Shown here: positions 25,857 to 32,435 of the stretch, piece after piece
Layout: every line of letters begins with the position of its first letter
Position numbering within the stretch: position 1 is the first letter of the stretch
DNA from: Thermoanaerobaculia bacterium
Lineage (GTDB): Bacteria; Acidobacteriota; Thermoanaerobaculia; Gp7-AA8
Direction of reading: 5' to 3'
Assembly (NCBI GenBank): GCA_036001325.1
Contig: DASYUK010000480.1
Coordinates: 1,033-65,032 of the forward strand
DNA length: 64,000 bases
Notes under the pieces: model-generated
The model's database searches: none
What the model was told of the DNA's origin: nothing
Seen by the model: the letters and a program-made list of their open reading frames with translations, nothing else
Translations under genes and position numbers: made by a program

Positions 25857-27044
25857 ATGGAGTTCGACATCTTCTTCTCGATCTGTCAGACGGACGTGCA
25901 TGGCTACATGCCGGACGAGAGAAAGATGTTCGAGAACTTCTTCGATCAGGTCGAGGTGGCCGATCAGCTCGGCTTCGGCACGGCGTGGATCGCCGAGAGT
26001 CATCTTTCCACTGAAGTGCAGAAGATGAATCTGGGCGCGGTGATCCCGCACTTCGTGGGCGAGATCGGCCTCAATACCGACATCCTCCAACTTGCGCATC
26101 GCGTGTTTGCACGCACGAAGCGGATCGGCGTCGGATCGGCCATCATGAACATCCTCTGCAATGGCGGTCCGATCGCAGCAGCGGAGCGGATCAAGACGTT
26201 TCTGACTCTGCACGGCCTCGATCCGGAGGAGTCGCGAATCCTGACGATCGGCTTCGCGTCGGGACGATTTCCGTTCATCAACGTCCCTTACGGCATCGTG
26301 CCACGCAACGCGGTGGAGGAGGCAGCCTGGCCGGTCGTCAAAAATAAGATCTTCGAGGAGGCAACGGAGATCTTTCTTCGCCTGCTGAAAGGCGAAGTGC
26401 TCAGTTCCGATCGCGTGGGGCGGCGTACGCTCAAGCGCGAAGACTTTCGATCCGATGCCGACTGGCAACGGGTGCTCGACGCTTACGGATCGCCGGCGAA
26501 TGAGATCGCTCTCGAGCCGCGCTGGTGTTTTCCGAATCTGAAGATCATTCCGCAGGAACCGCGCATGGATCTGCTTCGTCTTTCGATCGGCTCGCACGAT
26601 CCGCACACCCAGATCTTCGCGAACACGTTGATGCCCGTCGGCGTCTTCAATCTGTCGATCACGCCCGGCGATGAGATCGAGAAGACGAACGAACGGATGC
26701 GCGATCGCTATCACCCGGCTGGCGGCCGGTGGCACCGGCGTTTGATGCCGCGCACGGTTCTGGTCTTCATCAATGACGATCCGGCGCGGGCTGCCGTGGA
26801 GGCGCGGGACGCGTTATCGAACTATTGGCGCGCGCTGGAAGGTACACTCGACGAGACGAAGGTGCGCCGGGCCACGGATAACGCGCTCGTCGGCGACGCC
26901 GTCGCCATCGAGCGCCAGATGCGCCAGCGCTTTCACCCGGAGGATCGGCTGATGCTCTGGTTCGATTTCAATAATCATGACTCCGAAAGAGTAACGAAAA
27001 ACATGACCGATTTCATGACACGAGTAGCGCCACGATTCCTGTGA
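25857..27044 (+). CDS. LLM-class (luciferase-like) flavin-dependent oxidoreductase
   Basis: MEFDIFFSICQTD...FGTAWIAESH N-terminal TIM-barrel signature of luciferase-like monooxygenases. Confidence 0.75.
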   Translation: MEFDIFFSICQTDVHGYMPDERKMFENFFDQVEVADQLGFGTAWIAESHLSTEVQKMNLGAVIPHFVGEIGLNTDILQLAHRVFARTKRIGVGSAIMNILCNGGPIAAAERIKTFLTLHGLDPEESRILTIGFASGRFPFINVPYGIVPRNAVEEAAWPVVKNKIFEEATEIFLRLLKGEVLSSDRVGRRTLKREDFRSDADWQRVLDAYGSPANEIALEPRWCFPNLKIIPQEPRMDLLRLSIGSHDPHTQIFANTLMPVGVFNLSITPGDEIEKTNERMRDRYHPAGGRWHRRLMPRTVLVFINDDPARAAVEARDALSNYWRALEGTLDETKVRRATDNALVGDAVAIERQMRQRFHPEDRLMLWFDFNNHDSERVTKNMTDFMTRVAPRFL

Positions 27045-28102
27045 ACGACGAACACGTCCCCGTAAACTTCGCCCGTCCCATGCCGAACTGGCAGCCGCTG
27101 GTCGAGTATCGGCGCAACGGCATCGCCGAGAATACGGTGCACGGAGCAGTGTCGTGGGTTACGGGCAAGAAGCTCATGTATTCGTTTGGTGGCAACGTCG
27201 AGGTCTACGGCCGCTCGATGGTGAAGCCGCTCATGATGAAGGTGTTCGCGAAGGAATTTCGCAACGCGCTCACCGGAGAGCAGCAGGCCATCTCCGTCGC
27301 CTCGCACAACGGCGACACCGAGCACGTTCGCGTCGCGCGCTCGCTCCTGCTCAAGAGCGAGTGGGGCATGATGCAGGCACCGCACGACGTGCCGCTCGTC
27401 CAGTTCGGACGTCAGGTTCGCCGACCGCGGCGCTGGTACCACTGTTGTTCGGGCGAGCATGCCGCGATTCTCCGCGGCTGCAAATTGAAACGCTGGCAGC
27501 GCGCCGGCTACGTTCTGCCGCAACATCCCTTCTTCGTCGAGTACCTGAGCTACGTGCGTCGCGTCCTCGGCGACGACTGGAGCCCTCTCGCCATCGCAAA
27601 GGATGGCTGCGGACTTCCCACGATCGGCATGACGGTCACCGATCTTGCGAAGCTGTTCGCGAATCTCGTGACGGAGAAGAACGATGACTGGATCTGGAAC
27701 GCTATGATCGAGCATCCCGATCTGATCGGCGGCTTCAACCGGCTCGACTCGACGATCCTCAAAGCGTGTCACGGCCATGTCCTCGCCAAAGAAGGTGCCG
27801 ATGGTCTTCTCGGCCTCGCGATCGAGCATCCCGAGTATCCCGAAGGTCTCGGAGTCGTCGTGAAGGTTGCGCACGGCTGGAACCCGCAAGCCTCCTGGTA
27901 CATCGCCCGCTACATTCTCGGCGTCCTCGGATTCGAGTTTCGGAATCCTTACAAGCTTCTCCGACAGAAAGCGTTCATCGTTCCCGAAGTGATTCCGCCG
28001 CATCTGCGCGATCGCATGGCGGCGATCGTGCCGTGGGATTCGTGGGATCCCGACGTCGATCGCTGGGAGTTCGATCCGGAGGAGTTCCTTGCGACTCGGT
28101 AA
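27041..28102 (+). CDS. asparaginase_II (Rhizobium ReAV-type) family amidohydrolase
   Basis: SHNGDTEH, CSGEHAA, DGCGLPT, KEGADG motifs parallel the ReAV-type L-asparaginase family. Confidence 0.7.
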   Translation: MNDEHVPVNFARPMPNWQPLVEYRRNGIAENTVHGAVSWVTGKKLMYSFGGNVEVYGRSMVKPLMMKVFAKEFRNALTGEQQAISVASHNGDTEHVRVARSLLLKSEWGMMQAPHDVPLVQFGRQVRRPRRWYHCCSGEHAAILRGCKLKRWQRAGYVLPQHPFFVEYLSYVRRVLGDDWSPLAIAKDGCGLPTIGMTVTDLAKLFANLVTEKNDDWIWNAMIEHPDLIGGFNRLDSTILKACHGHVLAKEGADGLLGLAIEHPEYPEGLGVVVKVAHGWNPQASWYIARYILGVLGFEFRNPYKLLRQKAFIVPEVIPPHLRDRMAAIVPWDSWDPDVDRWEFDPEEFLATR

Positions 28103-30493: not shown

Positions 30494-31809
30494 TTCAACG
30501 AGCCTACATCGTTCCCGGCCAACCGCACATCCTGCTCGCGCCAGACAAGAACGCCGGTTGGGCTTCACTCAAGCGAGCCTACGAGACCGTAGGTCGCGAA
30601 ATCGCGGCGAGCGGTGCCGAGCTTCTCCTGGTCTACTCGACGCAGTGGTTCTCGGTCATCGGCCATCTCTTCCAGGTCGATCCGCGGCCGAAGTGGACGC
30701 TCGTCGATCAGAACTGGTACGAGTTCGGCGAGATCCCTTACGAGTTCCGGATCGATCCGAAGTTCGGTGAGCTCTACTGCCGCATCTGCAAGGAGCACGG
30801 AATGCAGGCGGCCACCGTGAACTACCACGGCTTTCCGATCGACACGGGGACGGTCGTGGCGCTCAAGCTGCTCAATCCGAACAACGCCGTCCCCGCCTCG
30901 ATCGTCTCCTGCAACATCTACGCGGAACGCGAAGAGAGTCGTGCCCTCGGCTTCGCCGCGCGGGCGGCGATCGAGGAGTACGGCAAGAAGACGATCGTCG
31001 TCTGCGTCACGAATCTTTCGAACCGCTACGAAGTCGGCGACATCGATCCCGCGGGCGATCGCATCTCCTCGGCGAAAGACGATGAATGGAACCGCAAACT
31101 CCTGGAGATGTTCGGTGAGGGGAGGCTCGAAGACGTCGCCCAGGTCGCGCGGGAATTCGCGCGCGAAGCAAACGCGGACATGGGATTCAAAGCGATCTGG
31201 TGGCTGGCCTCGCTGATGGGCGAGCACAATCGCTACGACGGAAAAGTGTGGGATTACCAGCCGGTGTGGGGAACGGGCGCGGCGATCGTCGAGCTGACAC
31301 CGTCGGAGAAGGAGCTCGATTTCGAGAAGGAATTCGACGAGGCGCCCGTGCCGGCGTTCGCCGCGACCGGGGGCACGGGGCTGGAAACGCACAACGTCCT
31401 CGCCGAAGCGCCCCATCGCGATGAGCAACAACCGGAGGAAGTGCTGATCACGGAGAAAGCGCCGCGACCAGTCGGCCCCTATCCGCACGCGCGACGAGTC
31501 GGCGAGCTGCTGTTCACTTCGGGAATCGGTCCACGCAAACCCCGTACGAATGAGATCCCTGACGGGATCGAGGCGCAGACGCGGAGTTGTATCGAGAACA
31601 TCAGGATCATTCTCGAAGAGGCGGGAAGCTCGCTGGAGAAGGTCCTCGATGTGACGGTCTATCTCACCGATATGAAGCGCGACTTCGATCGCTTCAACAA
31701 GGTCTATGCCGAATACTTCGGAAAGATCCAGCCAACGCGGACAACCGTCGGTGTCGACTCGCTGCCGACGCCGATCTCGGTCGAGCTGAGGATCATCGCC
31801 GCGAAATGA
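30490..31809 (+). CDS. fusion of LigB-like (AmnA-like alpha subunit) domain and C-terminal RidA/YjgF (2-aminomuconate deaminase-like) domain
   Basis: aa 1-270 LigB-family fold; aa 315-439 canonical RidA (...PVGPYPHARRVGELLFTSG...DVTVYLTDM...TRTTVGV...). Confidence 0.75.
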   Translation: MIQRAYIVPGQPHILLAPDKNAGWASLKRAYETVGREIAASGAELLLVYSTQWFSVIGHLFQVDPRPKWTLVDQNWYEFGEIPYEFRIDPKFGELYCRICKEHGMQAATVNYHGFPIDTGTVVALKLLNPNNAVPASIVSCNIYAEREESRALGFAARAAIEEYGKKTIVVCVTNLSNRYEVGDIDPAGDRISSAKDDEWNRKLLEMFGEGRLEDVAQVAREFAREANADMGFKAIWWLASLMGEHNRYDGKVWDYQPVWGTGAAIVELTPSEKELDFEKEFDEAPVPAFAATGGTGLETHNVLAEAPHRDEQQPEEVLITEKAPRPVGPYPHARRVGELLFTSGIGPRKPRTNEIPDGIEAQTRSCIENIRIILEEAGSSLEKVLDVTVYLTDMKRDFDRFNKVYAEYFGKIQPTRTTVGVDSLPTPISVELRIIAAK

Positions 31810-32435
31810 GTCGCCTCATCGACATCTCTCCTCTCATCGATGCAACGATCAAGGTCTGGCCCGGCGACACGCCGTATTCGCACACGCGCACTCTCGACAT
31901 CGCCGAGGGCGCCAACATCACGTTGTCGGAGATTCGCACAACTGTGCACGTGGGTGCCCATGCTGATGCCCCGAATCACTACATCGCGGGCGGCGAAGAC
32001 ATCGCCGTGCGCCGGCTGGACTATTACGTCGGTCGATGTGCCGTCATTCATGTGGATGGCGTGCGCGGACGACGGATCGTGGCTGACGATGTCAAACGAA
32101 AGGATATCACCGCCCCGCGCGTACTGATTCGCACGAAAACATTTCCCGATCCCCGCAAGTGGAACAACGACTTCGCCAGCCTCTCGCCGGAGCTCGTCGA
32201 TGTGCTCCACAGCCGTGGGGTGATTCTCATCGGTGTCGACACACCGTCGGTCGATCCGTTCGAGTCGAAAGAGCTCGAGGCGCACAAGGCCCTCGCCCGG
32301 CACAACATGGCCAGTCTGGAAGGCCTCGTGCTCGACGACGTCGCAGAAGGGGAGTACGAGCTCATTGCGTTGCCTTTGCGCCTCGCGAACGCAGATGCCA
32401 GTCCGGTTCGCGCCGTCCTGCGAACGCTGAGTTAA
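31806..32435 (+). CDS. kynB: kynurenine formamidase / cyclase-family arylformamidase (also isatin-hydrolase family)
   Basis: About 210 aa; VWPGDTP...HVGAHADAPNHY...GVDTPSVDP motifs of PF04199; ATGA overlap with upstream gene. Confidence 0.8.
   Translation: MSRLIDISPLIDATIKVWPGDTPYSHTRTLDIAEGANITLSEIRTTVHVGAHADAPNHYIAGGEDIAVRRLDYYVGRCAVIHVDGVRGRRIVADDVKRKDITAPRVLIRTKTFPDPRKWNNDFASLSPELVDVLHSRGVILIGVDTPSVDPFESKELEAHKALARHNMASLEGLVLDDVAEGEYELIALPLRLANADASPVRAVLRTLS

Follow-up and report, generated by a model that had tools for sequence, protein, structure and literature searches.

A conserved gene module with an AmnA::RidA fusion: a candidate route of tryptophan degradation without kynureninase

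Which substrate is served by an operon that joins an aminophenol-type ring-cleavage dioxygenase subunit to a RidA domain in a single polypeptide? We addressed this question at positions 25857-32435 (plus strand) of the window, the whole 64-kb stretch of DNA that was analysed. The interval holds six co-directional, mostly overlapping genes rather than the seven counted in the earlier note, whose own list has six items. Strand and coordinates of the listed genes were confirmed, and the proposed Pfam searches matched throughout (Bac_luciferase, Asparaginase_II, LigB, Ribonuc_L-PSP and Cyclase). The features are:

25857..27044, +, LLM flavin-dependent oxidoreductase, divergent luciferase-like (395 aa; Bac_luciferase E=3.9e-10)
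27041..28102, +, class-3 (ReAIV/ReAV-type) asparaginase-like amidohydrolase, AsnII (353 aa; Asparaginase_II E=9.9e-50)
28089..29513, +, HMSDH-family ALDH, 2-aminomuconate / 2-hydroxymuconate 6-semialdehyde dehydrogenase type (474 aa; Aldedh E=5e-176)
29510..30424, +, AmnB/CnbCb-type catalytic beta subunit of 2-aminophenol 1,6-dioxygenase (304 aa; LigB E=1.8e-26)
30490-31809, +, AmnA::RidA fusion, single ORF (439 aa; LigB E=2.6e-18, Ribonuc_L-PSP E=8.8e-31)
30490..31305, +, AmnA/CnbCa-type non-catalytic alpha-subunit domain (fusion residues 1-272)
31306..31434, +, inter-domain linker of the fusion (residues ~273-315)
31435..31809, +, RidA (YjgF/UK114) imine/enamine deaminase domain (fusion residues 316-439)
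31806..32435, +, KynB arylformamidase (kynurenine formamidase) (209 aa; Cyclase E=9e-19)

By their coordinates, neighbouring genes overlap by 4 nt (LLM/AsnII, ALDH/AmnB and fusion/KynB) or 14 nt (AsnII/ALDH), and a 65-nt gap separates AmnB from AmnA. Judged by homology, the six ORFs are real genes and not chance ORFs, because each has hundreds of close homologues, and the match of AmnB to 2-aminophenol dioxygenase beta subunits of known structure reaches E=8e-131.

The suspected kinship of the two LigB proteins with AmnA and AmnB is borne out by PDB matches that mark them as orthologues. AmnB matches 3vsg_B (E=8e-131), 8ihg_A (1e-125) and 7txy_B (1.5e-107), shares 63% identity with CnbCb and 61-64% with enzymes characterised on 2-aminophenol, and retains the equivalents of His13, His62, His195 and Glu251 (Fe ligands and catalytic His); judged by these residues, the catalytic beta subunit is complete. 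The AmnA domain matches 7txy_A (E=9.7e-55) and 3vsg_A (7e-52) and is 37% identical to CnbCa. It lacks the Fe site, as does CnbCa, because Gly, Gln, Asn and Asp occupy the beta-subunit ligand positions; the earlier description of this subunit as non-catalytic stands, the Fe ligands and catalytic His being kept in the first LigB protein only.

The C-terminal domain is, as the earlier note had supposed, a true RidA (TIGR00004, 114.5 bits versus a cut-off of 106.25), and both the Arg of its ‘PTRTTV’ motif and a C-terminal Glu are invariant among 26 orthologues (alignment A4). Domain and residue matches indicate that the AmnA::RidA protein is a non-catalytic alpha subunit followed by a linker of ~45 residues and a RidA domain with the catalytic Arg. 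The linker, for which AF2 yields no confident structure, differs in length among species and carries the invariant motifs EKEFD and GTGL..HN.L (alignment A4); homologues of the fusion are 429-483 aa long. We propose that the RidA domain deaminates 2-aminomuconate and/or the imine tautomer of its semialdehyde. Counting against this role, the domain, 35% identical to CnbJ, scores better against generic RidAs (PH0854, E=1.5e-30) than against a validated 2-aminomuconate deaminase (6izh, E=6.7e-22). Human generic RidA does not speed up 2-aminomuconate deamination (bioRxiv 10.64898/2026.06.05.730449). The same RidA subfamily is nevertheless independently linked to aminomuconate-type chemistry, since one protein (P0133) fuses an ALDH to three such domains and stand-alone members adjoin TDO (tryptophan 2,3-dioxygenase), a KMO-like flavoprotein and KynB.

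The assignment of the ALDH as a semialdehyde dehydrogenase can be narrowed to the 2-aminomuconate type: the top PDB hits are without exception 2-aminomuconate-6-semialdehyde dehydrogenases (E~1e-138), and its alignment conserves Cys302, Glu268 and the family-specific Arg120/Arg464, whose roles in AMSDH have been described (PMC4286809). On this alignment the ALDH has both arginines of the pair that sets muconate-semialdehyde dehydrogenases apart. Its scores against NCBIfam HpaE (582 bits) and OH_muco_semi_DH (579 bits) both fall under the equivalog cut-offs, and AMSDH accepts both 2-AMS and 2-HMS (PMC4286809). The cyclase-family protein, previously placed in the kynurenine-formamidase group, exceeds the equivalog cut-off for the arylformamidase KynB (TIGR03035 trp_arylform, 238.4 versus 223.05 bits) and matches two kynurenine formamidases in the PDB, 4cog (E=1.3e-54) and 4cob (2.3e-50), in alignments that include the HxGxHxDxPxH motif. 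AsnII matches ReAIV (8cly, E=1.8e-21). Its equivalents of Arg47, Ser48, Lys51, Ser80 and Lys263 are invariant; the roles of these residues are known in class-3 asparaginase, where Arg47 anchors the α-carboxylate of L-Asn (PMC12292245). The family keeps Arg47 and both Ser-Lys tandems, while the Zn site beside the leaving group varies (Cys, Glu and Cys in the window protein). The best PDB sequence match of the LLM has E=0.012.

The fusion is lineage-wide and not peculiar to the window: a scan of GTDB species-representative genomes gave at least 493 confirmed loci, the 80 retrieved being all from Acidobacteriota/‘Thermoanaerobaculia’/Gp7 MAGs. Automatic annotation already labels the fusion protein ‘aminophenol dioxygenase alpha subunit’ or ‘Rid family hydrolase’. 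The retrieved loci occupy a fixed syntenic slot (ProS-OMP-VanX ... GT-Wzy). Measured by identity across related genomes, the pathway proteins (median 90% for AmnB; 83% for AsnII, 83% for AmnA, 82% for LLM) are about as conserved as ProS (84%), compared with 57-67% for flanking genes. The cluster is best explained as an operon of catabolic function that resides on the chromosome and is conserved vertically. KynB lies beside the fusion at 44 of 81 related Acidobacteriota loci, being absent from about half, and at five loci from other lineages; neither TDO nor SDR occurs in the window or at any of these 81 loci.

With 50-77% identity, and in unrelated genomic contexts, this gene set also occurs in Planctomycetota, Myxococcota, Bdellovibrionales and Holophagaceae (source names on LLM homologues), with TDO and SDR directly upstream. 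TDO adjoins the module in six independent loci. Two (L087 and L165) read TDO-SDR-LLM-AsnII-ALDH-AmnB-AmnA::RidA, two more (L164 and L166) add KynB, and L163 and L161 carry TDO-SDR-LLM-AsnII with inserts; L091 has the same module genes, but there RidA is encoded on its own. On these gene orders, the full, multi-phylum form is TDO - SDR - LLM - AsnII - ALDH - AmnB - AmnA::RidA - KynB. The SDR, present wherever the TDO-bearing module was found, has no step in our pathway model; it might be a flavin reductase, or an enoate or keto reductase. Kynureninase, KMO, HAO, ACMSD and the 4-oxalocrotonate decarboxylase and hydratase were not found within ±10 kb of any locus examined or anywhere in the window; the carrier genomes may hold genes for kynureninase, KMO and ACMSD at other sites. 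Lower meta-cleavage genes were never adjacent at the examined loci, and the cluster has no genes for the further metabolism of 4-oxalocrotonate.

We lean, with a little more confidence than doubt, towards a module that degrades tryptophan via kynurenine and o-aminophenol ring cleavage without kynureninase or kynurenine 3-monooxygenase. TDO, which would be encoded elsewhere in the window's lineage, and KynB would form kynurenine. The step from kynurenine to aminophenol is deduced from gene presence and absence alone. We propose that the LLM is a kynurenine Baeyer-Villiger-type monooxygenase, which with reduced flavin and O2 would insert oxygen into the bond that links the side-chain carbonyl to the aryl ring; the product, a β-aspartyl 2-aminophenyl ester, could rearrange to N4-(2-hydroxyphenyl)asparagine. 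AsnII, the proposed Ser-Lys hydrolase of this intermediate, would free L-aspartate and 2-aminophenol. AmnB/AmnA would then convert 2-aminophenol to 2-aminomuconate 6-semialdehyde, and ALDH and the tethered RidA, in either order, would yield 4-oxalocrotonate and NH3. The half-life of 2-AMS is 9-35 s (PMC4286809), and 2-aminomuconate lasts about 160 min (bioRxiv 10.64898/2026.06.05.730449). Tethered to the dioxygenase, RidA would catch the imine tautomer of the semialdehyde ahead of cyclisation to picolinate. Channelling of the unstable product by the fusion, as the earlier note suggested, is a plausible possibility; RidA is joined to the dioxygenase and not to ALDH, the 2-aminomuconate-forming enzyme. 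The searchable literature yielded no description of the module; if the proposal is true, this is probably an undescribed tryptophan degradation route.

The earlier suggestion of a non-canonical, kynurenine-related route gains strength from the TDO genes that adjoin the module in other lineages and from the absence of kynureninase, KMO, HAO and ACMSD at all examined loci. A variant of the canonical pathway is nonetheless conceivable, in which KMO and kynureninase encoded elsewhere supply 3-hydroxyanthranilate, the AmnAB-like enzyme takes the place of the cupin 3-hydroxyanthranilate dioxygenase, ALDH and RidA carry out the last steps of the known bacterial pathway, and LLM, AsnII and SDR are accessory or unrelated. 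The association with TDO and KynB, the best ALDH matches, which are kynurenine-pathway AMSDHs, and the stand-alone RidAs beside TDO and a KMO-like flavoprotein would all fit. We consider it unlikely: ACMSD, needed between ACMS and ALDH, is never in the module, nor are KMO and kynureninase; AmnB shares 61-64% identity with enzymes characterised on 2-aminophenol; and core roles of LLM and AsnII are suggested by a conservation and co-location across phyla as tight as those of the dioxygenase. The same genes, including an aspartyl-type hydrolase, would also be accounted for if the LLM were a non-homologous kynurenine 3-hydroxylase, AmnAB cleaved 3-hydroxykynurenine directly, and AsnII split the acyl-substituted ring-fission product at its C-C bond to give aspartate and 2-aminomuconate semialdehyde. 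Serine C-C hydrolases of the BphD type do act on meta-cleavage products. However, C-C hydrolysis is without precedent in the class-3 asparaginase fold, aromatic hydroxylation is to our knowledge unusual among luciferase-type LLMs, and a small substrate is suggested by the high identity of AmnB to dioxygenases that act on plain 2-aminophenol; this scheme is improbable.

An origin of the substrate outside tryptophan metabolism (nitroaromatic, benzoxazinoid, N-formyl/N-acyl aminophenol or isatin-derived), close to the masked-aminophenol alternative of the earlier note, has a similarly slim chance. Nitrobenzene and chloronitrobenzene degraders are the source of the closest characterised AmnB/AmnA relatives, the cluster includes both a formamidase and an amidase, and a FadL/TodX-type outer-membrane channel lies upstream. 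Yet synteny is fixed over hundreds of species with housekeeping-level conservation and no mobile elements, TDO directly adjoins six independent loci, KynB passes the tryptophan-pathway cut-off, and a homology comparison with the pCNB1 cluster turned up neither a MarR regulator nor lower-pathway genes nor a CnbZ-type amidase. Neither an N-formyl or amide-masked aminophenol nor isatin is indicated as the source; tryptophan/kynurenine itself is favoured. Least probable is a biosynthetic module, for instance one controlling the output of picolinate, phenoxazinone or another aminophenol-derived metabolite. Spontaneous cyclisation of 2-AMS to picolinate (PMC3790839, PMC4286809) and the lack of a nearby lower pathway to central metabolism would suit it, but ALDH and RidA remove the very aldehyde and amine that picolinate requires, and tailoring, export or NRPS/PKS genes are not consistently associated at the examined loci.

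The module resembles the amnRJBACDFEHG cluster of Burkholderia xenovorans LB400 and Pseudomonas spp. (PMC3790839) and the cnb genes of Comamonas testosteroni CNB-1 plasmid pCNB1 in its side-by-side AmnB/AmnA-type subunits, its HMSDH-family dehydrogenase (48% identical to the pCNB1 ALDH) and its RidA-family protein. As the earlier note stated for the amn genes, the RidA-family proteins are encoded separately there; AmnJ/CnbJ and AmnD have genes of their own, whereas RidA is fused to AmnA here. The module also places ALDH before amnB, lacks the MarR regulator and the 4-oxalocrotonate decarboxylase, hydratase, aldolase and acetaldehyde dehydrogenase genes, and adds LLM, AsnII and KynB (in other phyla TDO and SDR too); it is chromosomal and vertically conserved, in contrast to the plasmid- or island-borne amn/cnb genes.

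With the bacterial kynurenine pathway (Burkholderia cenocepacia, Pseudomonas fluorescens nba genes) it shares TDO and KynB at the top and, at the bottom, an AMSDH-type ALDH, a RidA-family deaminase and the unstable 2-AMS and 2-aminomuconate. The middle differs, with SDR, LLM, an asparaginase-like hydrolase and a two-subunit LigB-type dioxygenase in place of KMO, PLP-dependent kynureninase, cupin HAO and ACMSD, and the predicted side-chain product is aspartate instead of alanine. Compared with the 4-hydroxyacetophenone monooxygenase/esterase route, the hydrolase is a class-3 asparaginase homologue and not an esterase; compared with type II (LLM-fold) Baeyer-Villiger monooxygenases such as 3,6-diketocamphane monooxygenase, the LLM bears a marginal sequence likeness to characterised LLMs. 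The Rut pyrimidine pathway offers a parallel combination, in which an LLM oxygenase (RutA), an amidohydrolase (RutB) and a RidA-family protein for an enamine/imine product (RutC) co-occur as they do here.

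Six ORFs on the + strand occupy positions 25857-32435, one fewer than the seven genes counted in the earlier note. Their coordinates overlap by 4-14 nt at four of the five operon junctions; at the fifth, a 65-nt gap separates amnB from the gene of a 439-aa AmnA::RidA fusion. The operon and its neighbours are as follows.

23762-25153, +, FadL/TodX-type outer-membrane channel, syntenic with the operon in Acidobacteriota.
25130-25870, -, divergent M15 D-Ala-D-Ala-dipeptidase-like gene, syntenic with the operon in Acidobacteriota.
25857-27044, +, divergent luciferase-like flavoenzyme (LLM); Pfam Bac_luciferase, E=3.9e-10.
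27041-28102, +, homologue of class-3 (Rhizobium etli ReAIV/ReAV-type) asparaginases (AsnII); Asparaginase_II, E=9.9e-50; PDB 8cly, E=1.8e-21.
28089-29513, +, aldehyde dehydrogenase (ALDH); its six best PDB matches are 2-aminomuconate-6-semialdehyde dehydrogenases, E~1e-138.
29510-30424, +, AmnB; PDB 3vsg_B, E=8e-131; 8ihg_A, E=1e-125.
30490-31809, +, AmnA::RidA fusion; residues 1-272 match AmnA/CnbCa and residues 316-439 match RidA in the PDB search.
31806-32435, +, arylformamidase (KynB); TIGR03035 score 238.4, above the cut-off of 223.05; PDB 4cog, E=1.3e-54.
32477-32692, +, ORF of 71 aa lacking a Pfam match; its sequence reads as acidic and helical.
32849-34885, -, 678-aa protein, GGDEF-EAL as read from the sequence by eye.

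AmnB and the N-terminal part of the fusion appear, from their sequences, to form a two-subunit 2-aminophenol 1,6-dioxygenase of the AmnAB/CnbC type within the LigB superfamily. AmnAB converts 2-aminophenol to 2-aminomuconate semialdehyde (2-AMS). Aligned with the pCNB1 plasmid proteins CnbCb and CnbCa, AmnB has all of the CnbCb-type residues, namely His13, His62 and Glu251, which we take from structural work on CnbC to be the Fe(II) ligands, and His195, likewise taken to be catalytic; the motifs at these positions are LAPHPPH, HSPHW, LSHRH and SEVKAG. Fusion residues 1-272 match 7txy_A and 3vsg_A (E~1e-52 to 1e-55, PDB search), and this domain carries Gly, Gln, Asn and Asp at the β-subunit ligand and catalytic positions, the same as the non-catalytic CnbCa. 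The earlier proposal that the LigB pair is related to AmnA and AmnB is supported by both the PDB matches and the ligand residues. An AF2 monomer model of the fusion, built from a shallow alignment, is of low confidence (pLDDT 52.6).

The C-terminal domain of the fusion is assigned on sequence grounds to the RidA subfamily of the Rid (YjgF/YER057c/UK114) family. In the PDB search, residues 316-439 hit RidA proteins with E values down to 1.5e-30, and the NCBIfam model TIGR00004 scores 114.5 against a cut-off of 106.25. The Arg of 'PTRTTV' and the Glu of 'VEL' are invariant in all 26 aligned orthologues; the conserved substrate-carboxylate Arg of RidA is Arg105 in E. coli RidA numbering. With the cut-off passed and the Arg kept, the RidA/YjgF domain that had been read from the sequence within the LigB-alpha polypeptide stands. 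The domain scores 110 bits against the generic PH0854, 81 against the 2-aminomuconate deaminase 6izh and 67 against E. coli RidA; going by PH0854 and 6izh, generic RidAs are its nearer relatives in sequence, and the solved 2-aminomuconate deaminase is the more distant one. Its identity to CnbJ is 35%. The context speaks for a dedicated 2-aminomuconate deaminase, the domain being fused to AmnA and related RidA domains to an ALDH (ALDH::3xRidA, P0133). Some enzymes of the family deaminate 2-aminomuconate, and the family hydrolyses 2-imino acids (PMC3790839, PMC4286809, PMC4433059); human RIDA, a generic member, is inactive on 2-aminomuconate (bioRxiv 10.64898/2026.06.05.730449). The linker between the two domains varies in length among orthologues while its motifs EKEFD and GTGL..HN.L are invariant, which suggests that it does more than tether passively.

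Relatives of the RidA domain tie its subfamily independently to aminophenol/kynurenine chemistry. Protein P0133 (873 aa) is an ALDH resembling hydroxymuconic-semialdehyde dehydrogenases (HMSDH) fused to three RidA domains of the same subfamily, and P0127 (430 aa) repeats the RidA domain three times in tandem, making a covalent pseudo-trimer. Stand-alone RidA genes of the subfamily adjoin a KMO-like FAD monooxygenase and tryptophan 2,3-dioxygenase (TDO) in five loci (L102 9396-12590; L113 10049-12802; L111, L117 and L120), with KynB also beside them in L102 and L111 and a short-chain dehydrogenase (SDR) often close by. This neighbourhood is a second, distinct kynurenine-linked setting for the RidA clade.

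The ALDH falls, by sequence, in the HMSDH family of 2-amino- and 2-hydroxymuconate semialdehyde dehydrogenases. Aligned to the P. fluorescens 2-AMS dehydrogenase (AMSDH), it keeps the Arg120 and Arg464 pair, Cys302 and Glu268, in the motifs 'LDIPR', 'LRDLR', 'CLCGSR' and 'LELGGKN'; Huo et al. (PMC4286809) report the Arg pair as a strictly conserved, family-specific feature. Because the protein scores below both NCBIfam equivalog cut-offs (HpaE, 582 against 638; OH_muco_semi_DH, 579 against 693), the assignment is to the family rather than to one exact substrate class. The cyclase-family protein is identified from sequence as KynB, kynurenine formamidase, its 'HVGAHADAPNH' aligning to the metal-binding HxGxHxDxPxH motif of 4cog. 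TDO and KynB together convert tryptophan to kynurenine.

The divergent product of 25857-27044 belongs to the LLM superfamily (TIM-barrel LLM fold), with every NCBIfam match far under its cut-off and a best PDB sequence match of only E=0.012. For class-3 asparaginases, the core comprises the Ser48-Lys51 and Ser80-Lys263 tandems, with Arg47 anchoring the L-Asn α-carboxylate, and the ReAV-type Zn site is formed by Cys135, Lys138 and Cys189 (PMC12292245). In AsnII, R58, S59, K62, S88 and K250 are invariant across seven orthologues and ReAIV (alignment A5), and the Zn ligands are not conserved: Lys138 is replaced by Glu (in the window) or Gln, and Cys135 and Cys189 by Ser and Asp in loci L165 and L163. 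Since the Zn site is altered though the Ser-Lys tandems and the Arg are kept, AsnII is probably a class-3 homologue with the catalytic core rather than an asparaginase sensu stricto. The Zn-ligand positions co-vary: most lineages, like the window, have Cys/Glu/Cys, and L165 and L163 have Ser/Gln/Asp. CnbZ-type amidase was considered as a relative of AsnII and discarded, there being no sequence similarity.

The AmnA::RidA fusion is common. Its homologues form at least 120 clusters (90% identity) at ≥73% identity, with at least 493 confirmed loci in GTDB species-representative genomes, and all 80 retrieved fusion loci come from Acidobacteriota MAGs labelled Thermoanaerobaculia or Gp7; no record has exactly the sequence of the fusion protein encoded in the window. 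The operon keeps a constant slot in these genomes, between ProS, the outer-membrane protein and M15 on one side and an optional GGDEF gene, a glycosyltransferase and a Wzy-type protein on the other. The upstream flank in the window is ProS, the FadL/TodX-type protein and the M15 dipeptidase. Downstream, the 71-aa ORF, possibly antitoxin-like, and the 678-aa GGDEF-EAL-like gene, found in only about one third of related loci, are placed between KynB and the glycosyltransferase, which, with the Wzy-type protein, was identified via Pfam-annotated syntenic orthologues in locus L001. The pathway proteins match ProS in degree of conservation: median identities are 90% for AmnB, 84% for ProS, 83% for AsnII and AmnA, and 82% for LLM, against 57-67% for flanking genes. 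Scans of the window for promoters and terminators gave no signal above shuffled expectation, and an Rfam search found no RNA family. The dipeptidase has a lipoprotein-like Met at 25834 which, if the true start, would leave 22 bp to the LLM start codon, so that the operon promoter would have to fall inside a coding region.

Rearrangements of the locus bear on which genes belong to the pathway. About one third of loci (L040 8114-11356 and some 26 similar ones) have no pathway gene upstream of the fusion, and carry MglA (-) and an Eda-like aldolase (+) there instead. The window has these two genes 11 kb upstream, Eda at 13842-14516 (-) and MglA at 14578-15552 (+), oriented oppositely to those of L040-type loci. 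An inversion of ~16 kb that separated amnB from amnA::ridA in this subclade, amnB and amnA lying on either side of one breakpoint, would produce this arrangement; under the inversion model amnB would lie outside the 10-kb flank in these genomes. As the inversion accounts for its location, the aldolase was rejected as a pathway member. Unrelated genes also occur inside the operon in some genomes, including between ALDH and amnB (L033 5421-8691; L051 6500-9000); examples are genes for an apparent LodA/GoxA-type quinoprotein oxidase with a flavoprotein partner (LodA/LodB-like, by eye) and membrane proteins. In L001, a 23S_rRNA_IVP four-helix protein (9613-9951, Pfam-annotated) separates amnB and amnA. 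Being variable and on either strand, the inserted genes were not taken as pathway parts, and such unrelated insertions indicate that the cluster is not always one transcription unit. Metagenome locus L085 (9357 bases) has 26% G+C yet encodes a normal fusion homologue; the low value probably stems from N runs or masked sequence.

We regard recurrence of the module across lineages as the decisive comparative evidence that these sequences offer. Outside Thermoanaerobaculia its genes recur at 50-77% identity in unrelated genomic contexts. Source names on LLM homologues include Planctomycetota, Myxococcota, Bdellovibrionales and Holophagaceae; only for the first two of these could the protein be linked to an examined locus (L161, L162). 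Genes in high-GC loci were taken from GC3-guided calls and pre-computed gene tables, and the arrangements are as follows.

L165, L087: TDO-SDR-LLM-AsnII-ALDH-AmnB-AmnA::RidA, then an MFS transporter.
L164, L166: SDR-LLM-AsnII-ALDH-AmnB-AmnA::RidA-KynB, with TDO at 5-8 kb distance.
L163, L161: TDO-SDR-LLM-AsnII, with a few genes inserted.
L092: LLM-AsnII-ALDH-AmnB-AmnA::RidA-KynB.
L091, 2638-5188: LLM-ALDH-AmnB-AmnA-AsnII-RidA, with RidA as its own gene after AsnII, in a lineage of ~53% GC.

The last of these offers a naturally unfused counterpart against which the fusion can be compared. A classical SDR gene lies directly upstream of LLM, nearly abutting it, in these other lineages (L161-L167 and L087; 9206-9997 in L165, 4298-5089 in L087); neither the window nor any of the 81 Acidobacteriota loci has it, and searches with it gave generic SDR matches only. 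TDO was likewise not found in the 64-kb window. L165 also has a 75-aa ORF without a family match (12405-12632) between the AsnII gene and ALDH.

Taken with the neighbourhoods of TDO and KynB, the gene content makes it likely that the cluster is a tryptophan/kynurenine module operating via aminophenol cleavage. We infer a link from kynurenine to o-aminophenol, for which SDR, LLM and AsnII are the sole conserved candidates. LLM would insert oxygen between the kynurenine ring and the γ-carbonyl in a Baeyer-Villiger reaction, giving a β-aspartyl 2-aminophenyl ester or an O-to-N shifted anilide, and AsnII would hydrolyse the ester or anilide to L-aspartate and 2-aminophenol. This appears to be the simplest chemistry requiring just one oxygenase and one aspartyl-type hydrolase, and an AsnII that retains its amino-acid anchor and nucleophile with an altered leaving-group side hints at the same hydrolysis. 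AmnAB with the tethered RidA would then cleave the 2-aminophenol ring, with the semialdehyde imine hydrolysed at once and the picolinate dead end avoided. As a whole, this tryptophan route free of kynureninase, KMO, HAO and ACMSD, with LLM, AsnII and the tethered RidA in the roles described, is put forward tentatively, as a possibility that we consider rather doubtful.

The order in which RidA and ALDH act could be read in two ways. Cyclisation to picolinate consumes 2-AMS with half-lives from 9 s (37 °C, pH 7.5) to 35 s, and AMSDH takes 2-AMS as the imine tautomer and also accepts the hydroxy counterpart, 2-HMS, both compounds being oxidised by HMSDH-type ALDHs (PMC4286809); 2-aminomuconate, the classical deaminase substrate, lasts ~160 min (bioRxiv 10.64898/2026.06.05.730449). 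Given these lifetimes and the acceptance of 2-HMS, a RidA held at the dioxygenase could act on the 2-AMS imine, yielding stable 2-HMS ahead of cyclisation, with ALDH next. Alternatively, ALDH would act first and RidA would serve as a normal 2-aminomuconate deaminase in a three-enzyme complex; the ALDH::3xRidA architecture of P0133 fits either order. If the proposed route is true, it would add a new branch to the textbook map of tryptophan catabolism, give a large orphan LLM clade a function and the class-3 asparaginase fold its first role other than as an asparaginase, and account for a RidA domain joined to the 'silent' dioxygenase subunit. It would also alter inference of tryptophan and aromatic-nitrogen turnover in abundant uncultured soil Acidobacteriota.

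To our knowledge, aerobic routes from kynurenine all use the PLP-dependent kynureninase, with or without KMO. Whereas a canonical kynurenine cluster combines KMO, kynureninase, 3-hydroxyanthranilate dioxygenase and ACMSD with TDO/KynB, the Pfam families of kynureninase, KMO, cupin HAO and ACMSD are all missing from the 10 kb on either side of the module in L161-L167. The canonical amn operon (amnRJBACDFEHG) differs in having 4-oxalocrotonate decarboxylase, 2-oxopent-4-enoate hydratase, aldolase, acetaldehyde dehydrogenase and a MarR regulator. The Pfam-annotated contexts of L161-L167 hold neither lower meta-pathway genes nor a MarR regulator, and the hydratase, decarboxylase and tautomerase of pCNB1 (DmpE, DmpH and 4-OT) have no tblastn match in the window or any AmnAB-carrying locus, the matches among ~160 loci being solely in two short RidA-only loci (L153, L154). 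In the searchable literature, outside which most subscription journals lie, we found nothing that describes the AmnA::RidA fusion, this combination of genes or a conversion of kynurenine to 2-aminophenol. Each protein family is already known, and annotation pipelines have already labelled the fusion. The module may bear on AmnJ, the unexplained RidA-family gene product of classical amn operons. Here an amn-type meta-cleavage core sits in a new tryptophan-linked module, and there is a realistic chance that it represents a new pathway branch.
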